A stretch of 64,000 nucleotides of DNA from positions 12,961 through 76,960 of the forward strand of contig JBAZTR010000004.1 in assembly GCA_041661745.1 (NCBI GenBank), given 5' to 3'. The position numbers and the translations under genes are program-made. The stretch comes from Patescibacteria group bacterium (lineage in GTDB: Bacteria; Patescibacteriota; Patescibacteriia; UBA9934; GWF2-40-263). The first letter of the stretch is position 1, and every line of letters begins with the position of its first letter. Positions 2,994-34,150 of this stretch are shown here, piece by piece. The notes below the pieces were generated by a model. It did no database searches. It was not told the origin of the DNA and was given only the letters and a program-made list of their open reading frames with translations.

Positions 2994-3072
2994 GTTTGAG
3001 TATGTAGTATGTAGTGGGTAGGCAATAGATCAAACTGAAACTTTTGCCTACATGCTACCTACTACATACTAC
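2994..3072. repeat. Palindromic element PE-Y (gtatgtagtatgtagtgggtaggcaatagatc … gcctacatgctacctactacatac)
   Basis: About 80-bp imperfect palindrome. Five copies in the window: 2994, 7645, 24395, 28241 and 34063. All lie immediately 5' of minus-strand gene starts. Confidence 0.85.
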
Positions 3073-3084
3073 CAACTACCGCCG

Positions 3085-4095
3085 CTAATTAGTAAAAATA
3101 CTTCGCTTGTAAGCCTCAAGGTTCTCCAAAGCTACACCAGTGCCCTTAGCCACACACAACTGCGGATCCTCGGCCACATAAACCGGCACGCCGGTGGCTT
3201 CGGAAATCAAACGATCTAAATTGCGAAGCTGGGCCGTACCACCGGAAAGGACAATACCCTTTTCCATAACATCGGCCGACAATTCCGGCGGGGTTTTGTG
3301 TAAAACCTCTTTTACCGTGGCTAAAATGCCTTCGAGTTCGTTTTGAATAGCTTCGGTTACGTCGTCGGAGGTGACCTCGATAATTTTAGGCAAGCCGGTT
3401 ACCATGTCGCGCCCTTTAATTTCCATGACTAATTTTTCTGGCAAATACATGGCTGAACCAATGCGGATTTTAATATCTTCCGAAGTTCGCTCACCAATAG
3501 CCAGACCATACTTACGGCGAACAAATTCAGAAATGGCCGCATCAAATTTAACCCCGCCAATTCTAATTGATTCGGATGAGACAATACCACCTAAGGATAA
3601 GACCGCCATTTCAGAAGTTCCGCCACCAATATCAATAATCATGTGACCAGATGGCGAACCAATGGGAATATTGGCACCAATGGCCGCGACAATCGGTTCC
3701 TTAATAACATAGGCGGCGCGGGCCCCGGCCGCCAAAGTGGCGTCAATAACCGCGCGACGTTCGACCGAAGTAATTCCCCCAGGCACGGCCACCATAACTT
3801 CAGGCCGAAAAATACGAACACCACCGACAGCTTTGTTAATAAAATAACGGAGCATGGCCTCGGTGGTGTGATAATCGGCGATAACGCCGTCCTTAAGCGG
3901 ACGACGAGCAATAATTGTGTCCGGCGTACGGCCAATCATTTCTTTAGCTTCACGACCAACCGCCAAAACTTTTTTATCGACTTTAGAAACTGCCACTACT
4001 GATGGCTCATTGATAATAACGCCTCGTTTAGGCAAGTAAACGAGGACAGTGGTGGTTCCAAGGTCAATTCCGATTTTCTTTATAAACATACTCAA
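3085..4095 (-). CDS. mreB: Rod shape-determining protein MreB (actin-like ATPase)
   Basis: IGIDLGTTTV… N-terminus and full-length actin/Hsp70 fold motifs (DIGGGTSE, GIVLSGGTAQL). 336 aa. Confidence 0.9.
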   Translation of the reverse strand: MSMFIKKIGIDLGTTTVLVYLPKRGVIINEPSVVAVSKVDKKVLAVGREAKEMIGRTPDTIIARRPLKDGVIADYHTTEAMLRYFINKAVGGVRIFRPEVMVAVPGGITSVERRAVIDATLAAGARAAYVIKEPIVAAIGANIPIGSPSGHMIIDIGGGTSEMAVLSLGGIVSSESIRIGGVKFDAAISEFVRRKYGLAIGERTSEDIKIRIGSAMYLPEKLVMEIKGRDMVTGLPKIIEVTSDDVTEAIQNELEGILATVKEVLHKTPPELSADVMEKGIVLSGGTAQLRNLDRLISEATGVPVYVAEDPQLCVAKGTGVALENLEAYKRSIFTN

Positions 4096-4154
4096 TCATT
4101 TCCCCCTTGTTACGCCGAAGTCGAGCTTAGCTCGACAAATCCAGCTAAGCTGGA

Positions 4155-6170
4155 TCAAAAACCGACTTCAATGTTCAAGTCTTTAGCCAAGCCAAACGCT
4201 CCAGTGTAATTATCGTCACCCCAAAAATCAGTCAGTTCAGCCGGCGTGGCAGACATCACCTTCTTATCAAAATCCAAGGTCGTGGTCAAACCGTATTCAG
4301 CCGCGCCCAGTTGTTTTACAACATTTAAAGAATAATGACCGGAAGCAACCATGGTTGTAATTGAATCAGGTAGATAATATTCAAAAGACAGGCGACCACT
4401 TTCGCCGGGTTCGATGGAAATAAACGCGCCAAAAACCGTTAAATCAAGTTCTTGACCAACATCAACCGCACCGGCCGCGCCGGAAGGATTTTTTAATTTA
4501 TCATTAGCTAGCATTCCTAAACCGCTAATGAATTGGCTGCCCTTAGGAACATAAACCCGAGTGTAGGTTCGATACCGCGTAGTTTTCCAATCAAAGACTC
4601 CTTGATGTTCGTACTTAATGGTTACCTTGCCGATAAAACGACCGTCGCCGCTTGGTTTAATCGAATAAGAAATATCACGCAATACTTCAGGATCGGTTTT
4701 TAACGCGGCCAAGTTGGCATCAATTACCATTAAGAAATCACCATCAGATTTTTCTACCACTCCGCCCCAGCCGGCGTTACGAATAATTTCTTCAGTCTCA
4801 AGGGAAGAATTGGAAAAAAGAGCAATTTGCTTGTCGGATAAATTTTTCTCAACAGCCGAAACCACCGGCCCCCAGGCAGAAAACGGTAAGTCAAAAATTT
4901 TACCTTTCATTTCATTAAACAACGAAGTGATAATATCCTTGCGCTGTGCGTACGGCACGCCTGATTCTTGAAAACCGATTTCCACTTGATATTCGAGAGT
5001 GTCGGTAATGTTATCGGCGGAAAAAGTTTGATTACCAACAACAATCGGACCGGTGATTTTAAGCAAATCAGCGACAAAAGTTGGGGTGATGCCAATAACC
5101 CCATCAAAAGAAATCGGTTCTTGCACGGCGTTTCTTTGTTCGGATGGAATGGATAAAACTTCGGCCGTAAACATGCTAATGGCATTTCTGGCGGAAACGG
5201 AAAAATCAGGCGACCAATTGCTGTCGCGGAAAAACCATTTATTAGCTCCCAAATATTTTTTAAGCGGGGTTGGCGGTTCAAGTGAATAATAGGGATTAGC
5301 CGCCTCGTCTAAAAGATAAGAATCTTTAAGTTCAAGTTCGCGAATTTCGCCATCCTCAACCCGCAAAATTCCGTAAGTCCCGATAAATCCGCCGGCCGGT
5401 CGCATTTCCGTATTGTTTTCAAGAAGTAAGAGGAAATTCTTTTCTTCGCCCAAACCGGTAAAAGCCGGAATAATTCGCGCGGCCGTGGCCGCTAAAAACA
5501 AACCGTCGTAAACCTGATCTAAAGTATTTTCGATTTTTCGAACAACCGTGCCCATGGGCTCCGGGACATCGCCCAAATCATCAATATTATTTTTAATCAA
5601 ACCGGCTTTTTCCGCGACCAAAGCTAAATCGGGGGCCGCGCCGTTAATTCGTTGTAAAACAATTCGTTTAACTGTCGGCGACATATCGTCGTACTGAAGC
5701 GGTAAAAATTCGCCAACCTCACCGGTGACATTTTCGGTTTCGCCAATGAGTCGGGTAATATCCGCCCCCAAATCGGCAATGTCATCAACTAAAGCAAAAA
5801 GATCTGATGATGAATCTAAAAGAGTTTCAGCAGCCACCACCTGCTCGCCAACCCATGGTAAAAATTTAAGCCAGGCAATACGTTTAAAAGAGCGGTCGGC
5901 TTTGACAAAAGCGATTTCGGCCGCATCAAGAGAAACTTTAGCCTCATCAAAAGAAAAAACCTCAACAGCATCCTTGGCTTCATACAAACGATCACGGCCG
6001 TCTAATAAAGATGTGACCACCAACCCGGCATTAACCGCTGTCCAAATCGCCGTTAAACCAATTAAAAGAGATAATAAAAATAAACCGACCTTAAAAAACC
6101 GGCGGCGCGTGATTTTCTTTTTTTCCAAAGGCGGAGCGTAATGCGCTAAAAATTCGGAATCATGACTCAT
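4155..6170 (-). CDS. Large N-terminally membrane-anchored extracytoplasmic protein (DUF4012-like)
   Basis: 671 aa with a single N-terminal TM helix after a basic stretch, then a long extracellular region. It sits in a cell-wall glycosylation neighbourhood (GT4, MreB, GT2). The family call is tentative. Confidence 0.4.
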   Translation of the reverse strand: MSHDSEFLAHYAPPLEKKKITRRRFFKVGLFLLSLLIGLTAIWTAVNAGLVVTSLLDGRDRLYEAKDAVEVFSFDEAKVSLDAAEIAFVKADRSFKRIAWLKFLPWVGEQVVAAETLLDSSSDLFALVDDIADLGADITRLIGETENVTGEVGEFLPLQYDDMSPTVKRIVLQRINGAAPDLALVAEKAGLIKNNIDDLGDVPEPMGTVVRKIENTLDQVYDGLFLAATAARIIPAFTGLGEEKNFLLLLENNTEMRPAGGFIGTYGILRVEDGEIRELELKDSYLLDEAANPYYSLEPPTPLKKYLGANKWFFRDSNWSPDFSVSARNAISMFTAEVLSIPSEQRNAVQEPISFDGVIGITPTFVADLLKITGPIVVGNQTFSADNITDTLEYQVEIGFQESGVPYAQRKDIITSLFNEMKGKIFDLPFSAWGPVVSAVEKNLSDKQIALFSNSSLETEEIIRNAGWGGVVEKSDGDFLMVIDANLAALKTDPEVLRDISYSIKPSGDGRFIGKVTIKYEHQGVFDWKTTRYRTYTRVYVPKGSQFISGLGMLANDKLKNPSGAAGAVDVGQELDLTVFGAFISIEPGESGRLSFEYYLPDSITTMVASGHYSLNVVKQLGAAEYGLTTTLDFDKKVMSATPAELTDFWGDDNYTGAFGLAKDLNIEVGF

Positions 6171-6196
6171 AATTCCCTACCTGACATCTTACCATT

Positions 6197-7246
6197 TTAC
6201 CTAAACCATTGGCTAATACTCCGACGCGGGACTTTGCGTCGCAACAAAATTTCCCGGCGCTTGCGCCACATTATTGGCAAGCCAGCAAAAAATTGCCAAA
6301 TAGCTCGAATGTTAGTGGGCTCAAAAAAACAAACGTAAACAAAGCGCAGCGCTTCGGCCGGCTTAATCCAGATCCCGGCCAAAAGCCAATCAACAAAACT
6401 CATGTTTTTGATGAGCAACCACCAGTGGTTGCGGGTGGAATAAAAACTGCGCATTTTGGATTTTCGCCGACGATTGCGAATGCGTTCAAAAAAGCTGGCC
6501 CGCTCCTTGCCATACATACCGCGAGCATGATGAGCCACGGCCTCGGGAACAAAACGCGCTTCCCAGCCAAGACTTTGAAAACGCCAGGCCAAATCAATAT
6601 CTTCTTTGTAAGCAAAAAAATCTTCGTCAAAATATTCGCTTTCGGACATTTTAACATCCTCCAAAGCCGAAGCTCGATAAAAACCAAAACCGGCACAAAC
6701 ACCAAAAACTTCACGAGCCGCGTCAAACTGCCCTTGGTCAAGTTCCCCGCCGCCGCGTTCGTAGAACCAGCGATACTTGTTGCCGCGAAGCCCGGTGGTG
6801 TCGATAACATCGGAATTAGTGTGTTCGCGTAAAACTTCGTCAGTACCGTTATCTTGAAACGAACGCAAAAGTTTTGGGGTAAAACTGGCGGCTTCGGGAT
6901 GAGCTTCGGCTTCTTTAATCAGTTCTTCTAAACAGTTTGGCCGAAAAACAATATCGGGATTAATGGTAACGCAATAACAGTGACTTAAATCTTCGCCCTC
7001 CCAATGCTTTATGGCGTACTTAATAGCCTGATTATGAGCCGCACCAAAACCGAGATTACGAACATTCCTAACGATCGTGACCGTGGGATATTTTTCACGC
7101 AACCATTTTTCCACGCCGTCACTTGAGCCGTTATCAACCACGCGTACGACAAAATCTTTGTAGGTTTGTTTTTCAATTGATTCAAAAAGATCCGGCAAAT
7201 CGGACATGCTGTTCCAGGCGACGATGTGAAGGGAGATTTTGGGCAT
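6197..7246 (-). CDS. Glycosyltransferase family 2
   Basis: N-terminal VVDNGSSDG / NLGFGAAHNQ GT-A fold (DXD-type) motifs. 349 aa. Confidence 0.75.
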   Translation of the reverse strand: MPKISLHIVAWNSMSDLPDLFESIEKQTYKDFVVRVVDNGSSDGVEKWLREKYPTVTIVRNVRNLGFGAAHNQAIKYAIKHWEGEDLSHCYCVTINPDIVFRPNCLEELIKEAEAHPEAASFTPKLLRSFQDNGTDEVLREHTNSDVIDTTGLRGNKYRWFYERGGGELDQGQFDAAREVFGVCAGFGFYRASALEDVKMSESEYFDEDFFAYKEDIDLAWRFQSLGWEARFVPEAVAHHARGMYGKERASFFERIRNRRRKSKMRSFYSTRNHWWLLIKNMSFVDWLLAGIWIKPAEALRFVYVCFFEPTNIRAIWQFFAGLPIMWRKRREILLRRKVPRRSISQWFR

Positions 7247-7308
7247 AATTGCCCTTTCACTTTAAAACAAAAACGGGGTTTATTCAACCCCGTTTATTCT
7301 TTATGTTT

Positions 7309-7638
7309 TTACCTAGAAAGTAACGCTACCATCAAAAACATCATAGCTCCAATTAAGACAAACCAGGCCACGGTCATACCCAAAAACCACAAGCCTTCCT
7401 TCTTTTTATTATCCAAATACAAAAGAATCGGTTTCAAGAAAAACAAAATACCCATCATTGCCGTCGAGAGAACAAGAATCATTAGAATAAAAGCCATCAT
7501 CAAAAAATCTGGGACCGAGACGCCAAAGTTGCCAAAAAAGTCTTCGCTGGAAAGCGTCAGGGTGAGGATAACGATATAAGCAACTGCCCCGGCGGCATGA
7601 TAAAACGGATAAAGGATATTTTTGTAGAAATTTTTCAT
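7309..7638 (-). CDS. Small integral membrane protein (3 TM)
   Basis: Hydrophobic 110-aa ORF. The first 6 codons of the track ORF (to 7656) translate the PE-Y element, so Met at 7638 is preferred. Confidence 0.5.
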   Translation of the reverse strand: MKNFYKNILYPFYHAAGAVAYIVILTLTLSSEDFFGNFGVSVPDFLMMAFILMILVLSTAMMGILFFLKPILLYLDNKKKEGLWFLGMTVAWFVLIGAMMFLMVALLSR

Positions 7639-7644
7639 ATTTTT

Positions 7645-7726
7645 GGGTTTGAGCATGTAGTAGGTAGTATGTAGGCAAAAGTTCCCGATTAGATCTATTG
7701 CCTACCCACTACATACTACATACTAA
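7645..7726. repeat. Palindromic element PE-Y (reverse orientation)
   Basis: Reverse complement of the 2994 copy: tagtaggtagtatgtaggcaaaagtt…gatctattgcctacccactacatactacatac. Confidence 0.85.
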
Positions 7727-7731
7727 GCAAA

Positions 7732-8208
7732 CTAGTTAATAATCCAAATAGTCCAGTTCAAAAACGCCGCAAAGCTAACCCAAAGAATGTAGGGGACAAG
7801 AAGGTATACGGCCGGACGCGAAACTTTCCAAAACACCACCATAGTCGCCACAATCGAAACCCACAAGGCAATGATTTCCAAAAAGGCCGCGCCGGGATTC
7901 TGTAGGCCAAAGAAAATAATTGACCACAAGACATTCAAAATCATTTGAGCCGCGAAAATCTTTAAGGCAAACTTTACATCTTTCTTTTTCCAACCCTTTT
8001 GCCACACCAAATACGCGGCAATACCCATAAGGGCAAAAAGAATCGTCCAAACCGGACCAAAAAGCCAATTGGGCGGTTGAAACCACGGCTTGTTTAATGT
8101 GGTGTACCAGGTAGTAATGGCCGGCGCAGTGAAAAACGAGCCAAGAATGCCGGCCGCTTCGACGGCAATAATGGCCAAAACGAGATGAAGAAAATTTTTT
8201 GTTTTCAT
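7732..8208 (-). CDS. tspO: TspO/MBR family tryptophan-rich sensory protein
   Basis: Conserved TspO signature (WYTTLNKPWFQPPNWLFGPVWTILFALMGIAAYLVW) across five TM helices. 158 aa. Confidence 0.8.
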   Translation of the reverse strand: MKTKNFLHLVLAIIAVEAAGILGSFFTAPAITTWYTTLNKPWFQPPNWLFGPVWTILFALMGIAAYLVWQKGWKKKDVKFALKIFAAQMILNVLWSIIFFGLQNPGAAFLEIIALWVSIVATMVVFWKVSRPAVYLLVPYILWVSFAAFLNWTIWIIN

Positions 8209-8837
8209 ATTTTTTTATTTTTATAGCTAACGGCTTGCCACAAAATTATTGTACTTAAAAGGGCGGCAAAGAAACACCATACCGAAGTTAAAGCTTCTCT
8301 AAATATTATAATCGTTACCAACAAACTTAAAAAGGCCAAACCGCCAAAGAGTTGAATTTTTTTGTGCGATGACATTAACAAACTGCCGCAGGTAACCAAA
8401 ACATAAATAACCAAACCATAATCCAAAAGAGGAATAGCTACTTGGTAAACAATTCTACTGTCATTCAAACAAACGGTAAGCGGCTCGGTGACCATAAAGA
8501 AAAGACCGTAAACCGCGGCCGCGGCGCCGAGCAAAGTGAAAAAACGCAAAGCTTGTTTTTTAAGTTTATCCGGTTCGATCCAGCCAACTAAAGCGGGAAT
8601 CGCCACTAACCAAAACAGGAAAGCGAAAAATAAAAAACCGTAACCCAAAATCATGCTCAGTTCGCTTGGTCTTGGCGTTAGCCACTGGAACCCTTCAATG
8701 GCTTGTTGAATGGAGAAAGCCAGGGGAATCGTGGCCAGCCAACGCATCTTTTTGTCTTTAGCTCTCATGACTGTGGCCACCCCGGTCACGGCCAATGCGG
8801 CACTCGCCGCAAAGCTTGCCTCTGGAGAAAAACACAT
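8205..8837 (-). CDS. Integral membrane protein (about 6 TM), unknown function
   Basis: Hydrophobicity pattern. It overlaps the tspO start by 4 nt, suggesting an operon. Confidence 0.5.
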   Translation of the reverse strand: MCFSPEASFAASAALAVTGVATVMRAKDKKMRWLATIPLAFSIQQAIEGFQWLTPRPSELSMILGYGFLFFAFLFWLVAIPALVGWIEPDKLKKQALRFFTLLGAAAAVYGLFFMVTEPLTVCLNDSRIVYQVAIPLLDYGLVIYVLVTCGSLLMSSHKKIQLFGGLAFLSLLVTIIIFREALTSVWCFFAALLSTIILWQAVSYKNKKI

Positions 8838-8839
8838 AA

Positions 8840-9793
8840 TTATAAATCAGGCTGATCGAAAACACTGAAACCATAAATAGTTGAACCTTCTGAAAAATCA
8901 GTAAGCATGAAGGAAAGATAGAAGGTGCTAGCTTGTTTTTCAAACCTTACCTGATATTCAACATAGTAAAAATCCATGACCTGACTAATCTTAGGCTCGC
9001 CAAAAGAAACCAAATTTCCCAAATCGGCTTTTTTATCAATCATGGGACTGACCGCGTTCATGGCCATCAAATCAGCCCCGCAATATTTACAAAAATTATC
9101 GTAATCATCGTTATTGTAGGCGGCAAACATTTCTTTTACTTTGGGATCAATGAAAGCAATGATTTCGGCCTCTTGTTTTTCCACCGGTGTATAAGTTTGG
9201 CCGGCAAACAACAAGGCACTAAGGATCAAAGCAATAATTGAAAGAACAACTCCCAAAATTCCGGTAATCTTCAAATTTCTCTTTTTGGTTCTAATCAAAT
9301 AAACGCTCAAGATAAAAAGAATTATCAGGAAGATTCGGGTATAAATAAAATTTTCCGAATAATTCGGCGAACTCATGCCAAAAACTAATAAAAAGAAAAC
9401 AGAAAAACCAGATAAAATAAAACCAACTAATCTTTTCCAACTTTGTTTTGTTTTACCCCAAAAAATTCCATTCACCAACACAAAAGACAAAATGATTGGG
9501 AAAACGATCATGAAAACTTTTTCCGCCTCAGCACTCAAAAAAATACCATTCTTTTGTTCGGCAGCTACGGCAAAAACCATGAAAGCTGTCAGAAGCATAG
9601 TGACAAACGACAAGACACTGAAAATCTTTACATCCTTCATGACGATGATCGTAAAAAGTAGCATGAATATTGGGAAGGCAATGAACGCCCCCAATAAATC
9701 TTTTTGAGAAAAATACATGGCAGCAAAACAGAACGCCAAAAGCCCGGCCAGGTAAACCCCTGCCCAAAGAATATTTTTTTGATAGGTTTTCAT
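8840..9793 (-). CDS. Integral membrane protein with C-terminal soluble domain, unknown function
   Basis: 317 aa. The N-terminal 200 aa are multi-TM and the C-terminal about 110 aa are hydrophilic. Confidence 0.5.
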   Translation of the reverse strand: MKTYQKNILWAGVYLAGLLAFCFAAMYFSQKDLLGAFIAFPIFMLLFTIIVMKDVKIFSVLSFVTMLLTAFMVFAVAAEQKNGIFLSAEAEKVFMIVFPIILSFVLVNGIFWGKTKQSWKRLVGFILSGFSVFFLLVFGMSSPNYSENFIYTRIFLIILFILSVYLIRTKKRNLKITGILGVVLSIIALILSALLFAGQTYTPVEKQEAEIIAFIDPKVKEMFAAYNNDDYDNFCKYCGADLMAMNAVSPMIDKKADLGNLVSFGEPKISQVMDFYYVEYQVRFEKQASTFYLSFMLTDFSEGSTIYGFSVFDQPDL

Positions 9794-9876
9794 ATTGTGT
9801 GTATTTTATCAAATTTAACCAAAATAAAAAAGACGGAGGGTTATCCGTCATTTTTATTAAAGGCTTTTATTTACTT

Positions 9877-10470
9877 TTAAATCTTTCCCACCAAATCAAG
9901 CCCGGGTTTTAAAGTGGCCGCCCCCGGTTTCCAGGAAGCCGGACAAACTTCACCGTTATGTTCACGGACAAAATTGGCGGCCTGAATTTTTCTTAACAAC
10001 TCGGCGGCGCTGCGACCAACACTGTTATCGTGTACTTCCATCACTTTTAGAAAACCGTCGGGATCAAAAACAAAAGTGCCACGCAAGGCCAAGCCTTCAT
10101 TGGGAATATAAACATTTAAAGCTCGAGCCAAAACCCCGGCCGGATCAGCCGCCATGGGAAAAGTTATCTTTTTAATGACCGGCGACTCGTCGTGCCAAGC
10201 CTTGTGAACAAAAACCGTATCCGTGCTAACACTGACAATTTCCGCATTGTTTTGCTTAAACGCTTCGTAATTATCGGCCAGTTCGGAAAGTTCGGTTGGA
10301 CAAACGAAAGTGAAATCAGCCGGATAAAAGAAGAGAACCAACCACCGTCCATGAAAATCCGAGATTTTCATTTTTTTGATTTTTTCATCTTGAAAAACTT
10401 CAAACTCAAAATCTTCCAATTTTGAATTAATTAAAGGCGTGTGATATTGAATATTTTGTATCTCGTTCAT
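9877..10470 (-). CDS. Peroxiredoxin (typical 2-Cys, AhpC/TSA family)
   Basis: Peroxidatic Cys motif FTFVCPTE and resolving Cys motif EVCPASW. 197 aa. Confidence 0.85.
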   Translation of the reverse strand: MNEIQNIQYHTPLINSKLEDFEFEVFQDEKIKKMKISDFHGRWLVLFFYPADFTFVCPTELSELADNYEAFKQNNAEIVSVSTDTVFVHKAWHDESPVIKKITFPMAADPAGVLARALNVYIPNEGLALRGTFVFDPDGFLKVMEVHDNSVGRSAAELLRKIQAANFVREHNGEVCPASWKPGAATLKPGLDLVGKI

Positions 10471-10502
10471 ATGAATATAAATTATTATTAACTTATTATA
10501 TT

Positions 10503-10600
10503 GTCTATTTTTCCTCTTCCCCTCTACCCCTGCCCTCTCCTTCCCAAGGAGAGGGAGATCTCGTGGGCGCTCGACGCGGGGCTGTTTGTTTTTCTTCTCT
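10503..10600. repeat. PE-C family element (cccctgccctctcc-ttcccaa-ggagagggag) plus conserved tail gctcgacgcggggctgtttgttttt
   Basis: Inverted repeat plus a tail shared with 11040 and 17860. Confidence 0.75.
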
Positions 10601-10946
10601 ATTTTCTAACAATCTCCGACTTAAAAAACTTTTCCTGAAAATTGGTCAGCTGCCTTATGTCATCATCACTTACTTTATTCCCTTCCGGCACAACAATCAA
10701 TTTGTCGTCGTCATCGTTTGTGCGGTGAATTACGGCGATGCAACGACCGGTAAAATCTTGCAACGTTTCGGTTACACCCAAAACATATACATCAATTTCT
10801 TCCCCATCCGGAGCTTTGGTGTCGGGCACGAAGCCGTAGTTTACCTCGTACACAAACCCATACTTGGGATGTAACGAACCAAGCGGACGATCAATTTTAA
10901 CTGTAACGGTTTGATTTAGATATTGAGTGTATAAATTGGCGAGCAT
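10599..10946 (-). CDS. Short family-I inorganic pyrophosphatase-like protein
   Basis: DRPLGSLHPKYGFVYEVNYGFVPDTKAPDGEEIDVYVLG matches the PPase active-site region (YPxNYGFIPxTxxxDGDPxDVLV). The track ORF to 11123 adds 59 codons that are a translated PE-C repeat, so Met at 10946 is preferred. Confidence 0.55.
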   Translation of the reverse strand: MLANLYTQYLNQTVTVKIDRPLGSLHPKYGFVYEVNYGFVPDTKAPDGEEIDVYVLGVTETLQDFTGRCIAVIHRTNDDDDKLIVVPEGNKVSDDDIRQLTNFQEKFFKSEIVRK

Positions 10947-10956: not shown

Positions 10957-11128
10957 TTATTTTCTTCCTCTCCCCCTCTATCCCCCTCTCCAAGTCCCTC
11001 TCCCCAACCCTCCCCCACTGCGGCAGTGAGGGAGGGAGATCTCGTAAGTGCTCGACGCGGGGCTATTTGTTTTTTAAAAAACCCTTCGTCCACTTCGTCC
11101 CCCTCAACCCCTTCGTCCCCCAAATCTT
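10957..11128. repeat. Compound PE-C element plus conserved 85-nt module
   Basis: cccctctccaagtccctctcccc…gggagggagatctcgt, then gtgctcgacgcggggctatttgttttttaaaaaacccttcgtccacttcgtccccctcaaccccttcgtcc. The second part recurs inverted at 17797..17885. Confidence 0.8.
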
Positions 11129-24394: not shown

Positions 24395-24477
24395 TTAGTG
24401 GGTAGGTGTGTAGTAGGTAGTATGTAGGCAAAAGTTCCCGACTAGATCTATTGCCTACCCACTACATACTACATACT
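24395..24477. repeat. Palindromic element PE-Y
   Basis: Same orientation as the 7645 copy. Confidence 0.85.
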
Positions 24478-24881
24478 CAAACCTTTTTAATAGTAATATG
24501 AGGCGGCCGATCGTAAACCGGGGTAACAAAACCTTCGGTTTTTTGTTTTACCCAAATAGCGCCGGATGTTCGGATCATTTCTTCCCCACCCTGGCGGGCC
24601 GCGTTTTCTACACCAATCACTAAAAGTTTCTTGGCAAAGGCTAAAGCATTGGCAATGGTGACAATAATCCTGGTCGAGGTAAACGAACCTGGGCCGGAAA
24701 CCACCACAATCTTTTCCAGGGCTTCTGGCGAAACCAAGTGATCGTGCAAAAATTCGGCGGTCGTGGCCAAATAACCCTCGGGGGCAACGGTAAATTCCTG
24801 AAACGAAAGAAGACGACCTTCGCTATCAAGAAGGCCGGCTTCCATTCGAGTAATATCTTGAGCGGCCAAGAATAAAATCAT
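24477..24881 (-). CDS. tsaB: TsaB (YeaZ)-like protein, truncated ASKHA fold
   Basis: VVSGPGSFTSTRIIVTIANALAFA matches the TsaB/Kae1-family glycine-rich loop. 134 aa, shorter than canonical TsaB. Confidence 0.55.
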   Translation of the reverse strand: MILFLAAQDITRMEAGLLDSEGRLLSFQEFTVAPEGYLATTAEFLHDHLVSPEALEKIVVVSGPGSFTSTRIIVTIANALAFAKKLLVIGVENAARQGGEEMIRTSGAIWVKQKTEGFVTPVYDRPPHITIKKV

Positions 24882-27786: not shown

Positions 27787-27838
27787 TCCCAAAACAAAAA
27801 CCACCGGCCTAAACCGATGGTTTTTTGTTTGGTTGAAA

Positions 27839-28237
27839 TTATTTCAATTCAGCCTTACCGCCAGCTTCTTCGATTTTCTTTTTCATTTCTTCGGCAGCGG
27901 CTTTGTCAACGCCTTCTTTGATCATCTTCGGGGCGCCGTCGACCAAATCCTTGGCTTCTTTAAGTCCAAGACCGGTCACTTCACGGACGACTTTGATGAC
28001 GCCGATTTTGTTGTCACCAGTGGCCGTCAACTCGACGTTGAAAGAGGTTTTCTCTTCAGCGGCGGCAGCACCACCAGGCGCGGCGGCCATCATCATAGCT
28101 GGAGCCGAGGCGGAAACGCCGAACTTCTCTTCAAGGACCTTAACCAATTCGGCCAGGTCAAGAACGGACATTTTTTCGATTTCTTCGACCAAAGCTTTGA
28201 ACTTGGCCGGGACTTCGACAATTTTTTCGTCAGACAT
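27839..28237 (-). CDS. rplL: 50S ribosomal protein L7/L12
   Basis: Canonical L7/L12 with an Ala-rich hinge and the C-terminal [27 protein letters not shown] motif. Confidence 0.95.
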
Positions 28238-28240
28238 ATT

Positions 28241-28322
28241 TTTAGGTTCGAGTATGTAGTATGTAGTGGGTAGGCAATAGATTTAATGAAACTTTTGCCT
28301 ACATACTACCTACTACGTACTA
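28241..28322. repeat. Palindromic element PE-Y
   Basis: Lies between rplJ and rplL, immediately 5' of the rplL start. Confidence 0.85.
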
Positions 28323-28341
28323 AAAATCTTTAGTTATTTAA

Positions 28342-28866
28342 TTAAACCTTCTTTTCTTGCACCGCTTTAAGGACTGTCACCAGCCCGCGCAAGTTGCCGG
28401 CCAAGACATTAACGAATCCGGAGACTGGAGCATTGAGAGAACCGACCAATTTGGAAAGGAGTTCGATTTTGCTGGGCAAGGCTGCGAGTTTTTTGACCTC
28501 ACCGGCATCAACCAGTTTGCCCTCAAGCACGCCGCCCAAGATTTTTACCGTGTCCCTTGTTTTAACGAGGTTAGCCAAGACCTTGGCGGCCGAGACTTCA
28601 TCGTCGAAAGCAAAGGCGGAAAGAATACTGCCCTCAAAGCCGGAAGGATCAACGGCCTCTTGGCCGGCTTCCTTAGCCGCAATTTTGAGCAATGTCTTTT
28701 TTGATACCACGACTTCCACCCCGGCCTTGCGACCTTTGGTACGAAGATCATCGGCATCCTTCATGGTGAATCCGGAAATGGAGGCAAAGGCCGCCGCTTT
28801 CATGCGACGAAACTTGTCGGCCAAATCGGCCACCATGGCTTCTTTTTGTACGCGTGTTTTTGCCAT
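28342..28866 (-). CDS. rplJ: 50S ribosomal protein L10
   Basis: MAKTRVQKEAMVADLADKF… The track ORF extends 31 codons upstream to 28959, so the start is re-set to Met at 28866. Confidence 0.85.
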   Translation of the reverse strand: MAKTRVQKEAMVADLADKFRRMKAAAFASISGFTMKDADDLRTKGRKAGVEVVVSKKTLLKIAAKEAGQEAVDPSGFEGSILSAFAFDDEVSAAKVLANLVKTRDTVKILGGVLEGKLVDAGEVKKLAALPSKIELLSKLVGSLNAPVSGFVNVLAGNLRGLVTVLKAVQEKKV

Positions 28867-29109
28867 ATAGTATCGACCTTTAGAATTAAAATGTTTGATT
28901 TTGGATTCAGACATTTTAATTTTTAAATAAAAACTGCGGAATAAAGCCGCAGGAAACAATCTATCTGGAAGATCCAGATTTTTTGCCTCGACGAGACTTA
29001 TGCCTTTTGGGCGACTCGTGTTCTACGGCTATCTTTAGTTCGAAAACAGTATAAATCAAAAAGAAAAAGGCGTCAAGAGGACGCCAGGAAGCAAGGAGCA
29101 CGAAGCCGA

Positions 29110-29391
29110 TCAGGCAGTACTCGGATCTTGAAGAACAAAATCGTAGAAGACAAACCAGTTCCCGTGCGCCTTGAGGATATCGGCGATCTCCTGACCGGTC
29201 AGAGCTTCCCCGCGGAAATCCATGACTTCCCGCATGTGCCGATCGAGGCTACCTGAGCCCGGGGTGATGGCCTCGGGCTCAGGGTCTTCCTCTGTGGGGT
29301 AGACCGCGAAGTAGCCGGTGAAGAAGAGGTTGTCAGGAAGGTTCTCGAGAACCTCGACGGGAAGATGCGCATTGAGCGGAGGAAACGACAT
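29110..29391 (-). CDS. GC-rich hypothetical protein (93 aa), moron-like unit
   Basis: AAAGGAGG Shine-Dalgarno 6 nt before the ATG. About 60% GC. Confidence 0.45.
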   Translation of the reverse strand: MSFPPLNAHLPVEVLENLPDNLFFTGYFAVYPTEEDPEPEAITPGSGSLDRHMREVMDFRGEALTGQEIADILKAHGNWFVFYDFVLQDPSTA

Positions 29392-29458
29392 GAGGCACCT
29401 CCTTTTCGTGCGGTCATACTTTAGTCAAACAAAAAAGGGGCGTCAAGCCCCTTGCCTT

Positions 29459-30346
29459 TTAAATCTTCTGGCACTTGGGGCAGTAGGCACTGCCCCGCCC
29501 GCCGACTTTAATTTTTTTTAAAATAGTTTTACAACGCCGGCATGACTGCCCTTCCCGACCATAAACTTTTAATTGTTTTTGAAAAGTTCCTTCTTTTCCA
29601 AAAGCATCGATGTAAGCGTCGGCCGAAGTGCCGTGTGCGGCAACGGCTTTTTTTAAAACAGAAACCGTGCCTTGATAAAGTTTTTTCATTTGCTCGTCGG
29701 AAATCTTGCCAACCAAGGTCATGGGGTGAATTCCGGCAAACCACAAAGCTTCAGAGGCGTAAATGTTGCCAATGCCGGCAATGCAGGTTTGATCCAAAAG
29801 ATGGGGTTTAATTTTTTTCTTGGGGGCCGAACGCAAACACATGGCCATTTTTTGCCAAGTAAAACTTTTGTCGAGCGGCTCGGGCCCGTAAGCTTGGGCC
29901 TCAAGATATTCTTCCAAACCTTTCTTATCAACCAATTTCAAAAAACCGAATTTACGAAAATCATTCCAATGCATTTCCTTGCCGCCAGACAATTTGAAAA
30001 TGACGTGTGTATGTTTGTCGACTCCACTTTCCCCTCCCACTTCTTGTCCCGCCGAAGCCCGGCGAAGGAGGATGGGGGAGGGGTTAGGGGTGAGGGATCT
30101 AACCAAAAATCGACCCGACATTTTTAAATGTGCCAAAATAAAATAATCACCGGAAAGTTTAAAAATCAAAAGCTTGGCTCGGCGTTCAACGCCGATAAAC
30201 TTTTTTCCTTTAAGAAGTTGAACAAATTTTTTGGGTGGCAAATTAAGCCGTCCGGAAAAATTGACGACAACATCTTTTATAGTCGCACCAACAATTGCTT
30301 GAGAGAGCTGACGACGAACGGTTTCGACTTCTGGTAATTCTGGCAT
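29459..30346 (-). CDS. mutM: Formamidopyrimidine-DNA glycosylase (Fpg/MutM) carrying an in-frame PE-C insertion
   Basis: N-terminal MPELPEVETVRR and C-terminal zinc finger CRRCKTILKKIKVGGRGSAYCPKC. About 27 extra residues (SLTPNPSPILLRRASAGQEVGGESGVD) are encoded by PE-C repeat sequence at 30017..30100. Confidence 0.85.
   Translation of the reverse strand: MPELPEVETVRRQLSQAIVGATIKDVVVNFSGRLNLPPKKFVQLLKGKKFIGVERRAKLLIFKLSGDYFILAHLKMSGRFLVRSLTPNPSPILLRRASAGQEVGGESGVDKHTHVIFKLSGGKEMHWNDFRKFGFLKLVDKKGLEEYLEAQAYGPEPLDKSFTWQKMAMCLRSAPKKKIKPHLLDQTCIAGIGNIYASEALWFAGIHPMTLVGKISDEQMKKLYQGTVSVLKKAVAAHGTSADAYIDAFGKEGTFQKQLKVYGREGQSCRRCKTILKKIKVGGRGSAYCPKCQKI
30017..30100. repeat. PE-C element inserted in-frame within mutM
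   Basis: …cccctcccacttcttgtcccgccgaagcccggcgaaggaggatgggggaggggttaggggtgaggg… lies inside the mutM reading frame. Confidence 0.8.
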
Positions 30347-30382
30347 ACAGTGCCACGCCGGAGCCTGAAAGGCGAAGGCAGG

Positions 30383-30733
30383 TTATTTTTCCGAGGCCTG
30401 TTTTATGAAGTGGCTAGTCACCACGCCCACTGCCCAAAGGAAGATGGCTGCCAAAACGGCCGGCCAAAAACCTTCGATGGTAATTCCCTTCACCATCGTG
30501 CTCATGAACCAAAGCATACCGGCATTGATCACAAAGATAAACAAGCCAAGTGTAACTATCGTAATCGGTAAAGTCAGAATCAAAAGAATTGGACGAACCA
30601 AAGCGTTGATTAAACCGAGTACCAATGCGGCGATAAGTGCGGCATAAAACGATTCGACGTGGAAGCCGGGGATAATCATGGCCGCTGCCAGTAGGGCGAG
30701 GGCGTTGATTACCCATCTTAAAATAATGGTCAT
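30383..30733 (-). CDS. Small 4-TM membrane protein (YvlD / phage-holin-4-like family)
   Basis: 116 aa, four hydrophobic helices. The family call is tentative. Confidence 0.4.
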   Translation of the reverse strand: MTIILRWVINALALLAAAMIIPGFHVESFYAALIAALVLGLINALVRPILLILTLPITIVTLGLFIFVINAGMLWFMSTMVKGITIEGFWPAVLAAIFLWAVGVVTSHFIKQASEK

Positions 30734-30734
30734 A

Positions 30735-30835
30735 GTTTTTTGTTCAATTGTTCAAGTTGTTCAAGTTGTTCACTTTTGGTTTTAAAACCGATCCGATAGT
30801 GAACATTTTGAACATATGAACAATTTGAACGGATT
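30735..30835. repeat. Palindromic element (ttgttcaattgttcaagttgttcaagttgttca … tgaacattttgaacatatgaacaatttgaac)
   Basis: Tandem ttgttcaa units on the left arm and tgaaca units on the right arm. Single copy in this window. Confidence 0.6.
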
Positions 30836-30838
30836 AAA

Positions 30839-31042
30839 TTATTCTTCAAACTTCTTCTTCAACTCCTTAATTTTATTTTCAACTTCGGAAAGTTTGCCTT
30901 TACAAACTTTCGCGAGCTCAAGTCCGCGTTCAAACTTAGCCAGACCTTCATCAAGGTCGGCTTCGCCTTTTTCGAACCACTCGGTGATTTGTTCGAGCTC
31001 TTCAAAAGCTTTGGAAAAATTTACAGTTGTTTTTTTGGTCAT
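30839..31042 (-). CDS. xseB: Exodeoxyribonuclease VII small subunit
   Basis: 67-aa coiled-coil FEELEQITEWFEKGEADLDEGLAKFERGLELAK. Overlaps the xseA stop by 4 nt. Confidence 0.85.
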   Translation of the reverse strand: MTKKTTVNFSKAFEELEQITEWFEKGEADLDEGLAKFERGLELAKVCKGKLSEVENKIKELKKKFEE

Positions 31043-32247
31043 ATAAGTTTTAGTTTTCCTTTTCCATTAACTCGCAACACTTCGGCCCCAAGCGAACCTT
31101 CAGCTAATTGTACCCCGATTTCCGCGCCAATCTCAAGCGCAGCCGCGTCTTTGATTACCTTCCCTCTGGCTGTAACAATACTGTAGCCGCGGGCCAGAAC
31201 GCGTTTAGGATCAAGATTGGCCAGAACGCGGAACGAAGCAGCTAAACGATCTTTGAAACGCGGCAGCCAATTGTTAACACGATCAAACAAATTGTTGGTG
31301 AGATGTGATAATTTTTCTTTTTGACGATCAGCCGCGGAAAAAATAAGTTGAGTGGCGCGATCAATTAACATTTGCTTCTCGCCTAAAACATCACTTAAAC
31401 GATTTTCTAAATGTCGGGTCATGGTTTCAATTTCATAAAGAACCTCCTGGCGATTTGGGACAACTCGTTCAGCTGCGTTGGACGGTGTGGAAGCACGGAC
31501 ATCGGCGACAAAATCGCAGAGCGATTCGTCACGCTCGTGGCCAACGCCGCAAACCACGGGAATTTTGGAACCAAAAACCGCGCGGGTAACTTGTTCGTCG
31601 TTGAAGGCATGAAGATCTTCCAAGCTGCCGCCGCCGCGAGTTAGTACTAAAACTTCCGGCCGCTTATCATCGGGCAAAGAATTAAATTTTTCGAAAGCCT
31701 CAAGAATTTCCGGCACGGCTTCCCGCCCCTGCACATGCACGTGTGAGAATAAAACCTCAACCCCGCCCCAGCGATTATTTAAAATTCTGATAAAGTCGCC
31801 GTAAGCCGCGGCATCACGCGAAGTGATTAAACCAATCCGTTCGGGAAATCTTGGCAAGCGGCGTTTGCGCGAAATCTCAAATAAACCTTCGTCGGTTAAT
31901 TTCTTTTTTAAAAGTTCGTAAGCTTTTTTTAAAGCCCCGTCGCCAACAGCTTCCATTTTTTGCACTTCAATTTGAAAACCGCTCCACTTATTAATGGCCG
32001 GCGGTCCCCAAACTTTTACTTTCATGCCGTCCTCAAATACTCCGCTCACTTTAAAAGTCGTGGCAAAACAACCGACTTTGGCCGAGGGATCGTTTTCATC
32101 TTTCAGCGAAAACATTATCCACTTGCCGTCTTTTATTTTGTAATCAAAAATCTCGCCTTCCACGGCAAAAGAATAGCCATCAATGTTTAATTTCAAAACT
32201 TGGTTGGCTAATTTCAGGTATTCCGAAACTTGTAGGACAGGTTCCAT
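31039..32247 (-). CDS. xseA: Exodeoxyribonuclease VII large subunit
   Basis: N-terminal OB fold plus the ExoVII-large catalytic region. 402 aa. Operon with xseB. Confidence 0.85.
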   Translation of the reverse strand: MEPVLQVSEYLKLANQVLKLNIDGYSFAVEGEIFDYKIKDGKWIMFSLKDENDPSAKVGCFATTFKVSGVFEDGMKVKVWGPPAINKWSGFQIEVQKMEAVGDGALKKAYELLKKKLTDEGLFEISRKRRLPRFPERIGLITSRDAAAYGDFIRILNNRWGGVEVLFSHVHVQGREAVPEILEAFEKFNSLPDDKRPEVLVLTRGGGSLEDLHAFNDEQVTRAVFGSKIPVVCGVGHERDESLCDFVADVRASTPSNAAERVVPNRQEVLYEIETMTRHLENRLSDVLGEKQMLIDRATQLIFSAADRQKEKLSHLTNNLFDRVNNWLPRFKDRLAASFRVLANLDPKRVLARGYSIVTARGKVIKDAAALEIGAEIGVQLAEGSLGAEVLRVNGKGKLKLI

Positions 32248-32305
32248 AACCCAGCTATTTTACCAGAAAAATAAAAAACCCGCCTATCTGGGTGATGGCG
32301 GGCGG

Positions 32306-33472
32306 TCAGGCCGAGTACGAAGCGTCGAGGATCCCTTCCCAGTCGAGGTCGGGGTCGAAGGGGTCGATCACCGCGTTCCGGAAAGCCGAGAAGACGTCGG
32401 AGACCGAAAGTTCGTTGAGAAGCATCTCCTTGATCGTCGGCGTCGGACGCGAACGGAGTTGGTCGGCGATGGCGGCCAAGTCCTCATCACACAAAAGGGC
32501 GAACAAAGCCGTGGTGTTCACCTCTGGCATAATTTCGGCCAGGGCGTCGTAGACCGCTCCGAAGATGGCGTGGCCATGATCGGAAGGGTTGTTGATCGGG
32601 TAGAACTTGTACATGTGCCGACGTGCTTCTTCGAAGAGTCCGAAGGTCGGACCACGGCTGAAGGAAACTGCTCCAACTTCGGCCGACTCGCGAACCAGGG
32701 CGACGATGCAACGGGCGACTCGCTCACGCTGGCTTGCCCCCAACTTGTGCATAGCCTTGTGGATTTCCGCCATCTCGCTTTCTTCGAGACAGATCCAGCA
32801 ACCACCCTTCTGTATACGAATGACATCGTTGTAGTCGGCGAAGAGGTAGGCGATCTTGTCAGCGAACATGACGATCGCTTCCTCGAGCGAGAGGATGCCG
32901 GTAGTGAGATCTTTGGCCCCGCGCGAATGGCGATGCATGACTTGGAGCGTCTGCTTGGTCAGGTTAAGACCATGACCGGAACGCTCAATGTGCTGGGCCA
33001 CGACCAGTCCAAAAACCTCGTGACGGAAAGATCGGCCGGTTTTCTTGGCCAGAAACATTTCACCGGTATGGCCGAGCGGCGTGTGACCGATGTCGTGGCC
33101 AAGGGCCCCGGCCAAACAGAGCCACGGGTTGGCCCCAAGGGCAAAGGCCAGGGCGACGGCGATCGAGCAGACCTCGTCAGTGTGCGAACGCCTGGTACGA
33201 ATATGGAGATTGGTCGGGTCGGGCACAACCTGGGTGTGCCTGGCCGAACGACGCAGACCACGGCTTTGCATAAGCTTCAACGCCGCGTCAATCATGTATG
33301 GATCGATGCCCGGCTGACCGATGAAGATCCCATCGCCATCGTTGTCACGGTGAATGCGCCGGACCGCGACCTCGGGACCAGTGGCCAGGTGTTTAAGGCA
33401 GCCAATGAACGGCCGGAGCTCGTTGCGGAGGAGTCGAACATCTTCAGGGGAAATGATGGAGAGCAGGTTCAT
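32306..33472 (-). CDS. HD-domain dGTPase-family (Dgt-like) triphosphohydrolase, GC-rich
   Basis: RSHTDEVCSIAVALA…GALGHDIGHTPLGHTGE matches the dGTP triphosphohydrolase family H…HD…D signature. GC is about 60%, against about 44% background. Confidence 0.65.
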   Translation of the reverse strand: MNLLSIISPEDVRLLRNELRPFIGCLKHLATGPEVAVRRIHRDNDGDGIFIGQPGIDPYMIDAALKLMQSRGLRRSARHTQVVPDPTNLHIRTRRSHTDEVCSIAVALAFALGANPWLCLAGALGHDIGHTPLGHTGEMFLAKKTGRSFRHEVFGLVVAQHIERSGHGLNLTKQTLQVMHRHSRGAKDLTTGILSLEEAIVMFADKIAYLFADYNDVIRIQKGGCWICLEESEMAEIHKAMHKLGASQRERVARCIVALVRESAEVGAVSFSRGPTFGLFEEARRHMYKFYPINNPSDHGHAIFGAVYDALAEIMPEVNTTALFALLCDEDLAAIADQLRSRPTPTIKEMLLNELSVSDVFSAFRNAVIDPFDPDLDWEGILDASYSA

Positions 33473-33532
33473 AGTGGACTCCGATGAAAAGGAACAGTGG
33501 AGGAGTATCTAAACAAAAAAAGAACCGACTGT

Positions 33533-33582
33533 CTAGTCGATTCTGCCTAGTCTCCTAGCTTCCTACCCTCCTAGCCTCCTAA
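33533..33582. repeat. PE-T family element (cctagtctcctagcttcctaccctcctagcctcct)
   Basis: Identical 35-mer to the reverse complement of 41297..41331. Confidence 0.75.
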
Positions 33583-34043
33583 AAATAAACCGGCTGAAAA
33601 ACCGGCACCGCCAACCAAAATATAAAAGCAATAAGAAGAAGCGAAACCAAAACTTCGAGCCAAACGGTTTTCCCTTCCTTACGCCCCAACCAACCAAAAC
33701 CAAAAAGCGGGAAAAAAATAAAATCAAAAACCAACCAAACCAAACCAGTAAAAAACAAAAGGGTCAACGGCCCGTACGGTTGGCCGACAAAATCAAGCCA
33801 GCCTTTATCAGCAACAAAAGGGTAGGTGCTGCCAAAGACCATCCCCATCAAAATATGTAACAGAAGGCCGGTGGCAAAAGCTGCTAATTGCGACAGGCGC
33901 AAATCAAAAAAAGATTTTACATCAACCACTAGCGGCAAATTTTTAACCTTGCCGCGGCGAACAACTTCCGTGATTATCGCCGGCATGGAAACAAGGAAAG
34001 CCGCCAGGCCACCGACTGAAGCGCCTAAAATAATGTCGTTCAT
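33579..34043 (-). CDS. Integral membrane protein (4–5 TM)
   Basis: Hydrophobicity. 154 aa. Confidence 0.45.
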   Translation of the reverse strand: MNDIILGASVGGLAAFLVSMPAIITEVVRRGKVKNLPLVVDVKSFFDLRLSQLAAFATGLLLHILMGMVFGSTYPFVADKGWLDFVGQPYGPLTLLFFTGLVWLVFDFIFFPLFGFGWLGRKEGKTVWLEVLVSLLLIAFIFWLAVPVFQPVYF

Positions 34044-34062
34044 ATTTGTTTTTTTTGGACAC

Positions 34063-34150
34063 GAGTATGTAGTAAGTAGTGGGTAGGCAATAGATCTAAT
34101 TGGGAACTTTTGCCTACATACTACCTACTACTTACTACAATACTACATAC
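34063..34150. repeat. Palindromic element PE-Y
   Basis: Same orientation as the 2994 copy. Confidence 0.85.

Follow-up and report, generated by a model that had tools for sequence, protein, structure and literature searches.

How does one palindromic sequence come to lie directly before several unrelated genes of the same bacterium? The question is raised by a stretch of 64,000 nt (hereafter the window; GenBank assembly GCA_041661745.1, contig JBAZTR010000004.1, positions 12,961 to 76,960), in which a palindromic element designated PE-Y occurs five times. The host, an uncultured bacterium, is assigned to Candidatus Uhrbacteria (Patescibacteria, or candidate phyla radiation, CPR), and the RplJ of the window is 82% and 79% identical to those of two Uhrbacteria metagenome-assembled genomes. 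PE-Y is probably one of the clade-wide families of non-autonomous palindromes, similar to foldback elements or miniature inverted-repeat transposable elements (MITEs), that come and go in the spacers between cistrons and are transcribed with the adjacent genes as stem-loops. Its multi-copy status, structure and positions, the turnover of the families and their sharing across genomes are established for the sample surveyed, which comprises ~75 kb of the host genome and fragments. The proximity of the copies to start codons would mostly reflect the scarcity of non-coding DNA.

Copies, architecture and folding

The initial annotation had described five palindromic copies on both strands, and all five are found where it had placed them, each ~85 nt in length (Table 1). 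The 24-nt arm sequence GTATGTAGTATGTAGTGGGTAGGC recurs in the window at 3000(+), 7700(−), 24453(−), 28252(+) and, with one mismatch, 34065(+); it is absent from 100 of 100 shuffles, and no chance copies are expected. Three copies lie on the plus strand and two on the minus strand. Their boundaries were drawn with a covariance model, and sequence reads and alignments were also used. Searches with a hidden Markov model and the covariance model returned no additional or partial copies in the window. The window corresponds to bases 13000–76999 of a 128-kb metagenome contig in ENA, and a sixth copy is found on this contig shortly beyond the window, in the nusG/rplK spacer. The six contig copies (74.8 kb) share three arm mismatches and the asymmetric loop and are 88–95% identical in the core; the density of the family is ~1 copy per 12 kb. 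Copy 5 has a longer distal arm owing to additional GTAG-type heptamer units (34137–34150). L022 and L029, which are independent assemblies of this strain, break off within the element, and a contig from a sample of the Joint Genome Institute (JGI; L028) is identical to the window. The organism is present in samples ERZ27249449, SRR18595301, SRR6484324 and JGI 3300014208.

PE-Y is an imperfect palindrome. Its stem of ~30 bp has three mismatches that are fixed, and its loop, of ~20 nt, is asymmetric (GCAATAGATCTAATCGGGAACTTTTGC). The outer stem is GGTTYGAG/CTCRAACC, and the arms consist of 3–7 tandem heptamers of the form GTAG-NNN, such that the self-identity of an arm at lag 7 is 0.67–0.75 versus at most 0.44 at the other lags from 3 to 10 and at most 0.50 at lag 11. 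GTAG is present at least three times per arm, every one of them paired with CTAC inside the stem. The hairpin is borne out by folding energies, which the initial annotation had proposed as a check: the spacer RNAs reach −29 to −42 kcal/mol (z = −4.7 to −7.5). Folded alone, the left arm and the right arm have minimum free energies of −3.0 and 0.0 kcal/mol, and formation of the hairpin needs the whole 85-nt unit. Covariation among 14 homologues does not exceed that of shuffles (13 of 30 pairs are invariant and two show double changes), the family being too conserved to be informative. Neither a sense-strand G-U bias nor a bias between sense and antisense folding energies is observed. In Rfam, PE-Y gives only generic miRNA-hairpin matches at 20–27 bits against thresholds of 60–195, and the sole match in the window at gathering level is a tRNA. 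The flanks diverge directly outside the outer stem in alignments. A search of the window for AGGTTYGAG yields three occurrences, all at PE-Y ends, and no free target sites.

An exact 20-mer scan gave no match in 185,579 species-representative genomes, and a scan of viral contigs likewise gave none; by these scans the family is narrow and absent from GTDB representatives. A degenerate 20-mer scan of JGI metagenomes returned 19 loci. Eight PE-Y copies, 78–92% identical to the window copies, are found on seven of these contigs (L005, L006 with two copies, L007, L008, L009, L010 and L017). All eight lie between co-directional genes and end 9–18 nt before an ATG, with priA/def, subtilase/epimerase, MBL/ndk, VirD4-like/ORF, an ABC-3 permease and metK as neighbors. 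The other twelve loci (among L002–L004 and L011–L020) were set aside, ten as a gut tandem repeat and two as single-copy chance matches in another gene context. On L006, positions 3645–10756 encode four tandem paralogues of ~580 aa with no Pfam match. A PE-Y-type copy stands before paralogue 2 and another before paralogue 3, and a degenerate one before paralogue 4; the element was thus duplicated along with the gene. In L005, as in the relative L094, a palindrome stands directly before the ATG of metK. The window metK (38457–39500) is only 39% identical to that of L094 (3595–4683), a relative at ~80%, which implies that the metK genes of sister genomes may be different paralogues or xenologues.

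Placement between genes

Each contig copy fills a spacer of 89–150 nt between two co-directional genes. The flanking genes are unrelated to one another, as had been claimed: in the order upstream/downstream they are mreB/GT4, TspO/ORF, tsaB/mscS, rplJ/rplL and C39-like peptidase/ORF for copies 1–5 and nusG/rplK for the sixth. The claim that the copies lie immediately 5′ of minus-strand start codons holds for all five window copies, and the arrangement recurs in the eight copies on other metagenome contigs. In copies 1, 2 and 4, ~7 nt separate the outer stem from the ATG, and the conserved core ends 13–20 nt before it in 5/5. On the upstream side, the stop codon of the co-directional gene is −1 to 19 nt away. 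In copy 3, the tsaB stop codon TGA (24477–24479) falls within the outer stem AGGTTTGAG. The nusG/rplK copy abuts the nusG stop and is 64–70 nt from the rplK ATG, and the intervening leader carries GGGAGG. Relative to the genes, 6 of the 14 copies are in sense and 8 in antisense orientation. On the contig, 64 of 83 spacers are co-directional; the presence of all six copies in this class (p ~0.2) is therefore unremarkable. Because empty spacers measure only 9–35 nt, any insert ends up near both a stop codon and an ATG.

Read-through of the elements by gene prediction had been suspected of creating false N-terminal extensions, and it does so in public gene calls, which place the start of GT4 at TTG 3033 (381 aa) and that of the small ORF at 7656 (115 aa). 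In orthologues, the protein begins at the ATG that follows the element, with MFIIAIDSSS in the case of GT4 and MSKNFSK in that of the small ORF, and the true lengths are 365 and 109 aa.

The stretch between element and ATG is A-rich and has no Shine–Dalgarno (SD) motif (Table 1). Relatives retain AAATAAAAT-ATG as the flank of rplL and TAAAAAT-ATG as that of mscS, beside differing elements as well as in empty spacers; at these two compared sites, the stretch is therefore a native gene flank rather than part of the element. The context TAAAAAT-ATG precedes several genes, including secE, which has no PE-Y copy. At secE (L026 9188–9375; window-equivalent 64250–64437), an unrelated small hairpin, TGACCCTTCGACTCAACTCAGGGTCA, is followed by AACCTAAAAAT-ATG, as after copies 1 and 4. 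By a script count, an SD-like motif precedes only 22 of 84 genes. Approximately ten genes, read by eye and not by a motif search, have a TGnTATAAT or TGnTAAAAT box ending 6–10 nt before the ATG, and many start contexts give the visual impression of being A/T-rich, of the type ...AAAAAT-ATG. The box spacing and the few SD motifs suggest that leaderless or SD-independent translation may be widespread in the host. PE-Y itself is likely, by prediction, to be part of a transcribed intercistronic or 5′ untranslated region (UTR) RNA.

Turnover at orthologous spacers

Syntenic loci were taken from relatives at 66–86% protein identity. The occupants of the mreB/GT4, tsaB/mscS and rplJ/rplL spacers differ from genome to genome (Table 1), and essentially every permissive spacer in the clade holds some hairpin. 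Ten element-less relatives (L034–L041, L043 and L044; RplJ 53–65% identical) have empty rplJ/rplL spacers of 9–35 nt, and these more distant relatives have few long inverted repeats. The 5′ end of rplJ is empty in the window (AAAGGTCGA-TACTAT-ATG) and filled in L031, L032, L033, L094 and L097, with inserts 3–14 nt from the ATG where measured. In the same region, upstream of rplJ, positions 28919–29046 (−) match the L10 leader RF00557 at 41.7 bits (gathering threshold 44), and the leader is conserved in L031–L033, L094 and L097.

Members of one family also occur at unrelated loci. A TTACGAA-type palindrome in the rplK/rplA spacer (L026 7750–7836; window-equivalent ~65789–65875) is ~90% identical to the L094 rplJ/rplL element, and a GGAGT-type arm is common to the L094 rplJ 5′ end and the L096 mscS/GT2 spacer. 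Palindromes of the same class in L094 occupy a convergent spacer at a gene 3′ end (1040–1170) and a divergent spacer, and some are nested; L098 has nested examples at 10028–10132 and 9173–9562. Elements overlap coding ends at the tsaB stop codon and at the last codons of genes in L094 and L096.

Copy 2, in the TspO/ORF spacer, is the only window copy with an orthologous PE-Y in L100, a relative at ~80%. This pair shows what is best read as vertical retention, and the occupants of the other window sites would be later gains or replacements, since only this copy is orthologous in L100. The aligned arms of the two copies are nearly identical, with loop and flanks diverged; the flanking proteins are 79% and 48% identical. 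At the position that TspO occupies in the window and in L100, L103 carries a gene for an IS4/IS5-like DDE transposase (1400–2368).

Probable interpretation as mobile palindromes

The coexistence of families, their sharing across genomes, the use of both orientations, and the empty, filled and differently filled states of the same sites point to small non-autonomous mobile palindromes rather than to a promoter or a conserved regulatory RNA. PE-Y would have multiplied recently in the Candidatus Uhrbacteria genome and would behave much like repetitive extragenic palindromic (REP) sequences, with mobilization provided in trans by a putative enzyme. Copies would land in, or persist only in, very short AT-rich co-directional spacers in either orientation, and insertion would leave ~7–20 nt of the native A-rich, SD-less initiation region before the next ATG. 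The copies would be transcribed as stable intercistronic stem-loops. Proximity to the ATG would result mainly from the tiny spacers and from selection against occluding the start region. Several families per genome (the GTAG, TTACGAA, GGAGT, GGGG/CCCC, CTAGGAGG and GTTCAA types) coexist in the clade, and in the course of evolution one takes the place of another in a given spacer. The closest architecture is that of miniature foldback elements, and PE-Y appears to be a new family within the known class of small mobile palindromic repeats.

Several points weigh against this interpretation. The insertion of PE-Y is inferred from the distribution of the families and not from a near-identical pair of strains with empty and filled sites. 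The ~75 kb and the flank alignments yielded no transposase, no duplication of a target site and no defined motif for terminal cleavage. The downstream flank is uniform, measuring 9–20 nt in 13 of 14 copies. Lastly, the conservation of the arms between the window and L100, which would not be expected of a purely neutral parasite, suggests either a constraint at the sequence level (a function or a binding factor) or ongoing homogenization.

The only insertion sequence (IS) seen in the contigs surveyed is the L103 gene mentioned above, of the DDE_5/DDE_Tnp_1 type. Its terminal hairpin, AGTGTTAATGAGATA, is unrelated to PE-Y, and the transposase was rejected as an autonomous partner because its ends are unrelated to PE-Y.

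Alternative explanations

The element could instead be an intercistronic RNA signal selected by the host for RNase III-type processing, stability or insulation, with mobility merely distributing the signals. The cistrons would thus be separated, and the next gene would be left with a short, unstructured, A-rich leader. This explanation is judged rather unlikely. It accounts for the ~30-bp stem, which is long enough for RNase III, for the A-rich flank of ~7–20 nt that is always kept before the ATG, and for the presence of some hairpin in the same spacers of every close relative; the scarcity of SD-like motifs and the conservation of orthologous arms around a diverged loop are likewise in its favor. 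A 5′ stabilizer would also be plausible at rplL, whose output would have to exceed that of rplJ. However, covariation does not rise above shuffles, there is no sense-strand G-U bias, and the orientation of the copies is random. Moreover, distant Uhrbacteria have empty spacers of 9–35 nt at the same junctions, and the rplJ 5′ site is empty in the host genome itself.

Site-specific insertion just upstream of start codons, the targeted preference for gene 5′ ends that the initial annotation had offered as one option, is judged unlikely. The proximity to the ATG is real, with a tight flank of 9–20 nt that often reads (C)TCRAACC-TAAAAAT-ATG regardless of which element end is turned toward the gene. 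A preference for insertion before the ATG, or else selection, may be hinted at by a downstream flank that is never shorter than ~7–9 nt, and the relatives in which rplJ 5′-end inserts were measured give a further hint of such a preference, since those inserts lie within 3–14 nt of the ATG despite an available leader of >100 nt. At tsaB, the native end of the gene (AAGGTYTGA) falls where the outer stem lies, a hint of target homology. Against this, in the window, the stop codon upstream is equally near; one copy is 64–70 nt from its ATG; elements of the same class occur at a 3′ end in the convergent spacer of L094 (1040–1170); AGGTTYGAG is confined to PE-Y ends, leaving no pool of free targets; and TAAAAAT-ATG also stands upstream of secE, where there is no PE-Y. 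The function of the leader would in any case limit where inserts survive.

A decidedly doubtful proposal is that the periodic-arm palindromes constitute a clade-specific, genome-wide intercistronic punctuation, in which a sequence-reading trans factor would cleave or bind the hairpin and leave the downstream cistron with a short, A-rich 5′ end that is translatable with no SD sequence, in a clade where SD-like motifs are few and leaderless mRNAs may be common. Such a factor would explain the invariant GTAG every 7 nt together with the arm conservation of the orthologous copies, and families co-evolving with it would explain why the same spacers are always filled by different sequences.

Mobilization of PE-Y as a REP or REPIN (REP doublet forming a hairpin) family by a REP-associated tyrosine transposase (RAYT, or TnpA-REP) is improbable. 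GTAG is invariant and repeated, and E. coli REPs begin much like the inner core GTAGGC. PE-Y further shares with GTAG REPs an extragenic, multi-copy and hairpin character, a location between unidirectional genes, the lack of a target-site duplication and genome-specific families (PMC3733652). Against this, neither arm is palindromic on its own, and the unit is therefore not two REP hairpins combined into a dimer; GTAG lies base-paired in the stem and leaves no unpaired tag; sister families in the clade have no GTAG; and no Y1 transposase gene was seen in ~75 kb, where none of the 84 called genes is of the PF01797 type.

Evolution of ancient local hairpins in situ, through slippage of arm units and with homogenization inside a genome by gene conversion but no transposition, is quite improbable. 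The arm units of 7–9 nt are arranged in tandem and vary in number between copies (copy 5 and L006), the same spacers are filled in all close relatives, and the orthologous arms in the window and L100 are nearly identical, all of which such a process would produce. It would not produce whole elements that are ~90% identical, asymmetric loop included, at unrelated loci and in both orientations; conversion between unrelated families would have no flanking homology to act on, and a given site can be empty in one genome and filled in another.

A promoter or 5′ UTR module driving the downstream gene by an outward-facing promoter, the other function put forward initially, is very improbable: 13 of 14 copies adjoin an ATG, a weak −10-like CATACT can be read 13 nt before the ATG, and Correia elements of Neisseria create promoters at their ends (PMC2649163), but the elements contain no consensus (a scan of 23000–36000 for sigma-70 promoters, which have −35 and −10 hexamers 16–18 nt apart, found none within copies 3–5), the nearest −35-like TTGCCT is just 15 nt from CATACT, the TGnTATAAT box seen by eye at ~10 other genes has no counterpart in PE-Y, orientation is random, and rplJ/rplL and nusG/rplK are operon-internal junctions, at the latter of which the copy lies 64–70 nt upstream of rplK.

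Comparison with known repeat systems

GTAG REPs are described as short extragenic multi-copy hairpins that lie mostly between unidirectional genes, form species-specific families and show no target-site duplication (PMC3733652). PE-Y resembles REPs, bacterial interspersed mosaic elements (BIMEs) and REPINs in being short, multi-copy, extragenic, hairpin-forming and probably transcribed, in the coexistence of several families per genome, and in the GTAG motif. Its distribution is also REP-like: the 74.8 kb contain six copies, and the spacer of each is co-directional. However, its GTAG recurs every 7 nt and is paired within one ~30-bp stem, whereas the REP tag is single and unpaired, and its sister families have unrelated repeat units. 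PE-Y has no 20–40-bp imperfect palindrome of which two are inverted to form a REPIN, as its arms do not fold alone, and it ends in GGTTYGAG/CTCRAACC rather than in an unpaired GTAG/CGTC tag. PE-Y is therefore not placed with REPs or REPINs, because single arms do not fold and GTAG is paired.

Visual inspection of the aligned flanks revealed no constant-length direct repeat of the kind left by MITEs. Correia repeat enclosed elements (CREEs, also Neisseria miniature insertion sequences, NEMIS) are described as gene-adjacent and co-transcribed, with hairpins that can be RNase III substrates and that affect the expression of neighbors (PMC2649163). PE-Y is similar to these palindromic units of ~100–150 nt in standing beside genes and in its predicted co-transcription. 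CREEs are bounded by terminal inverted repeats of 26 bp, duplicate a TA target, contain an IHF site and can give rise to −10/−35 boxes. In contrast, the flanks of PE-Y have no consistent TA duplication, and copies 3–5 have no promoter consensus. Because no target-site duplication was seen, PE-Y does not fit the definition of a classical MITE or of a CREE.

The foldback (FB) transposons of Drosophila and other eukaryotes have long inverted arms made of short tandem repeats, with variable arm length, and many of them are non-coding. PE-Y shares the inverted arms of short tandem repeats, but FB elements are kilobase-scale and eukaryotic, whereas PE-Y is ~85 nt, bacterial and intercistronic. Rickettsia palindromic elements (RPEs) are palindromic repeats of ~100 nt in reduced, host-dependent genomes and typically lie in frame inside genes. 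Some copies of the PE-Y class overlap coding ends, which recalls RPEs, but PE-Y is essentially intergenic. Short tandemly repeated repetitive (STRR) sequences of cyanobacteria are heptamer repeats, and mycobacterial interspersed repetitive units (MIRUs) are intercistronic in operons and carry small ORFs for translational coupling. PE-Y has heptamer units in common with STRRs and proximity to stop and start codons in common with MIRUs; both, however, are direct tandem arrays, whereas PE-Y is a single inverted hairpin.

Intrinsic terminators were rejected as a class, as PE-Y has no T-tract, is followed by A-rich CAAACCTAAAAAT and was not reported by the terminator scan; canonical terminators are found elsewhere in the window (e.g., 27792–27830). 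Integron attC sites, which lie between mobile promoterless cassettes beside an intI gene, were likewise rejected, since the flanking genes are housekeeping genes whose synteny is conserved in relatives, no integrase is nearby, and the GTTTGAG end does not fit GTTRRRY. TIGR-Tas arrays, met in the literature (PMC12045711), were rejected as well: PE-Y forms single hairpins between housekeeping genes and no tandem array beside a Tas gene.

Significance

The literature searched contains no description of interspersed palindromic repeats in CPR/Patescibacteria, the genomes of which are regarded as highly streamlined. PE-Y and at least four sister families take up a large share of the few intercistronic spacers, including ribosomal-protein operon junctions, and their occupants turn over between genomes whose proteins are still 70–85% identical. 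Metagenome assemblies break at the repeats (L022 and L029), gene callers are misled by them, and they are usable as strain-typing markers. They offer a tractable case of how selfish hairpins persist in minimal genomes, and they raise the question of whether hairpins may be co-opted for mRNA processing where SD-like motifs are scarce.

Other features of the window

Table 1. Positions of PE-Y copies, associated sites and other features (window coordinates unless a contig handle is given)
Feature	Position	Strand	Context
PE-Y copy 1	2991..3078	+	99-nt spacer, mreB stop (3085) to GT4 ATG (2985); antisense to genes
PE-Y copy 2	7644..7732	−	93-nt spacer, TspO stop (7732) to ATG (7638) of 109-aa membrane ORF; sense
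PE-Y copy 3	24397..24485	−	tsaB-like gene to MscS-like gene (ATG 24387)
PE-Y copy 4	28243..28329	+	104-nt rplJ/rplL intercistronic spacer; rplJ stop 28342, rplL ATG 28237
PE-Y copy 5	34056..34150 (covariance model: 34056–34144)	+	C39-like peptidase stop (34156) to ATG (34043) of 154-aa membrane ORF
PE-Y sixth copy, outside window	L026 8332–8420		nusG/rplK spacer
A-rich SD-less pre-ATG stretch TAAAAAT	2986..2992	−	between copy 1 and GT4 ATG
Equivalent pre-ATG stretches	7639–7645, 24388–24397, 28238–28244, 34044–34056		copies 2–5
Genes with TGnTATAAT or TGnTAAAAT boxes upstream	35018–36412, 62215–63624, 47014–48078, 18116–18760, 8840–9793, 31039–32247		read by eye
mreB/GT4 occupants			window, PE-Y; L100, GGAGT type; L102, CGTAAAA type; L103, TTACGAA type
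tsaB/mscS occupants			five genomes, each with a different periodic-arm palindrome; TsaB 74–86% identical
rplJ/rplL occupants			different palindrome in each of window, L031, L032, L033, L094, L097
Periodic-arm palindrome of a different family	30742–30830	−	GTTCAAATTGTTCATATGTTCAAAATGTTCAC / GTGAACAACTTGAACAACTTGAACAATTGAAC; ends 8 nt before ATG of holin-like gene (30383–30733)
Octamer-periodic family	33547–33584, 41291–41390, 20516–20561, 22159–22212		CTAGNNTC/GANNCTAG, repeated TAGGAGG
G/C-run hairpins	1103–1143, 23673–23713, 39789–39829, 10518–10593, 10999–11074, 18761–19030, 19721–19981		CCCCTCTCC...GGAGAGGGG, partly nested
132-nt direct repeat, three copies	18823–18954, 19775–19906, 21606–21737		66–96% identity
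Rfam tRNA match	45532–45628	+	50.6 bits
Probable defense or mobile island	~11100–16350		GC falls to 36–41%

The window holds further palindromes. The octamer-periodic family forms a full palindrome at 41298–41383 and half copies elsewhere, and the PE-Y covariance model gives a weak match (27 bits) at 41291–41390. One G/C-run hairpin (23675–23699) ends 8 nt before the ATG of GT2, with its GGAGG-like 3′ arm at SD distance. The 132-nt direct repeats lie in a GC-rich patch (up to 58% GC) with small ORFs and RNA_pol_A_CTD-like genes.

The host carries type IV pilus genes. The probable defense or mobile island encodes a Bro-N protein, DUF498, a PIF1-like helicase, an Abi_C-like protein and an NmeDI_C-like endonuclease. 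The tRNA match has an anticodon loop of 31 nt versus 6 in the model, an insertion of ~25 nt, and is not called by ARAGORN; this tRNA may be intron-containing or otherwise interrupted.

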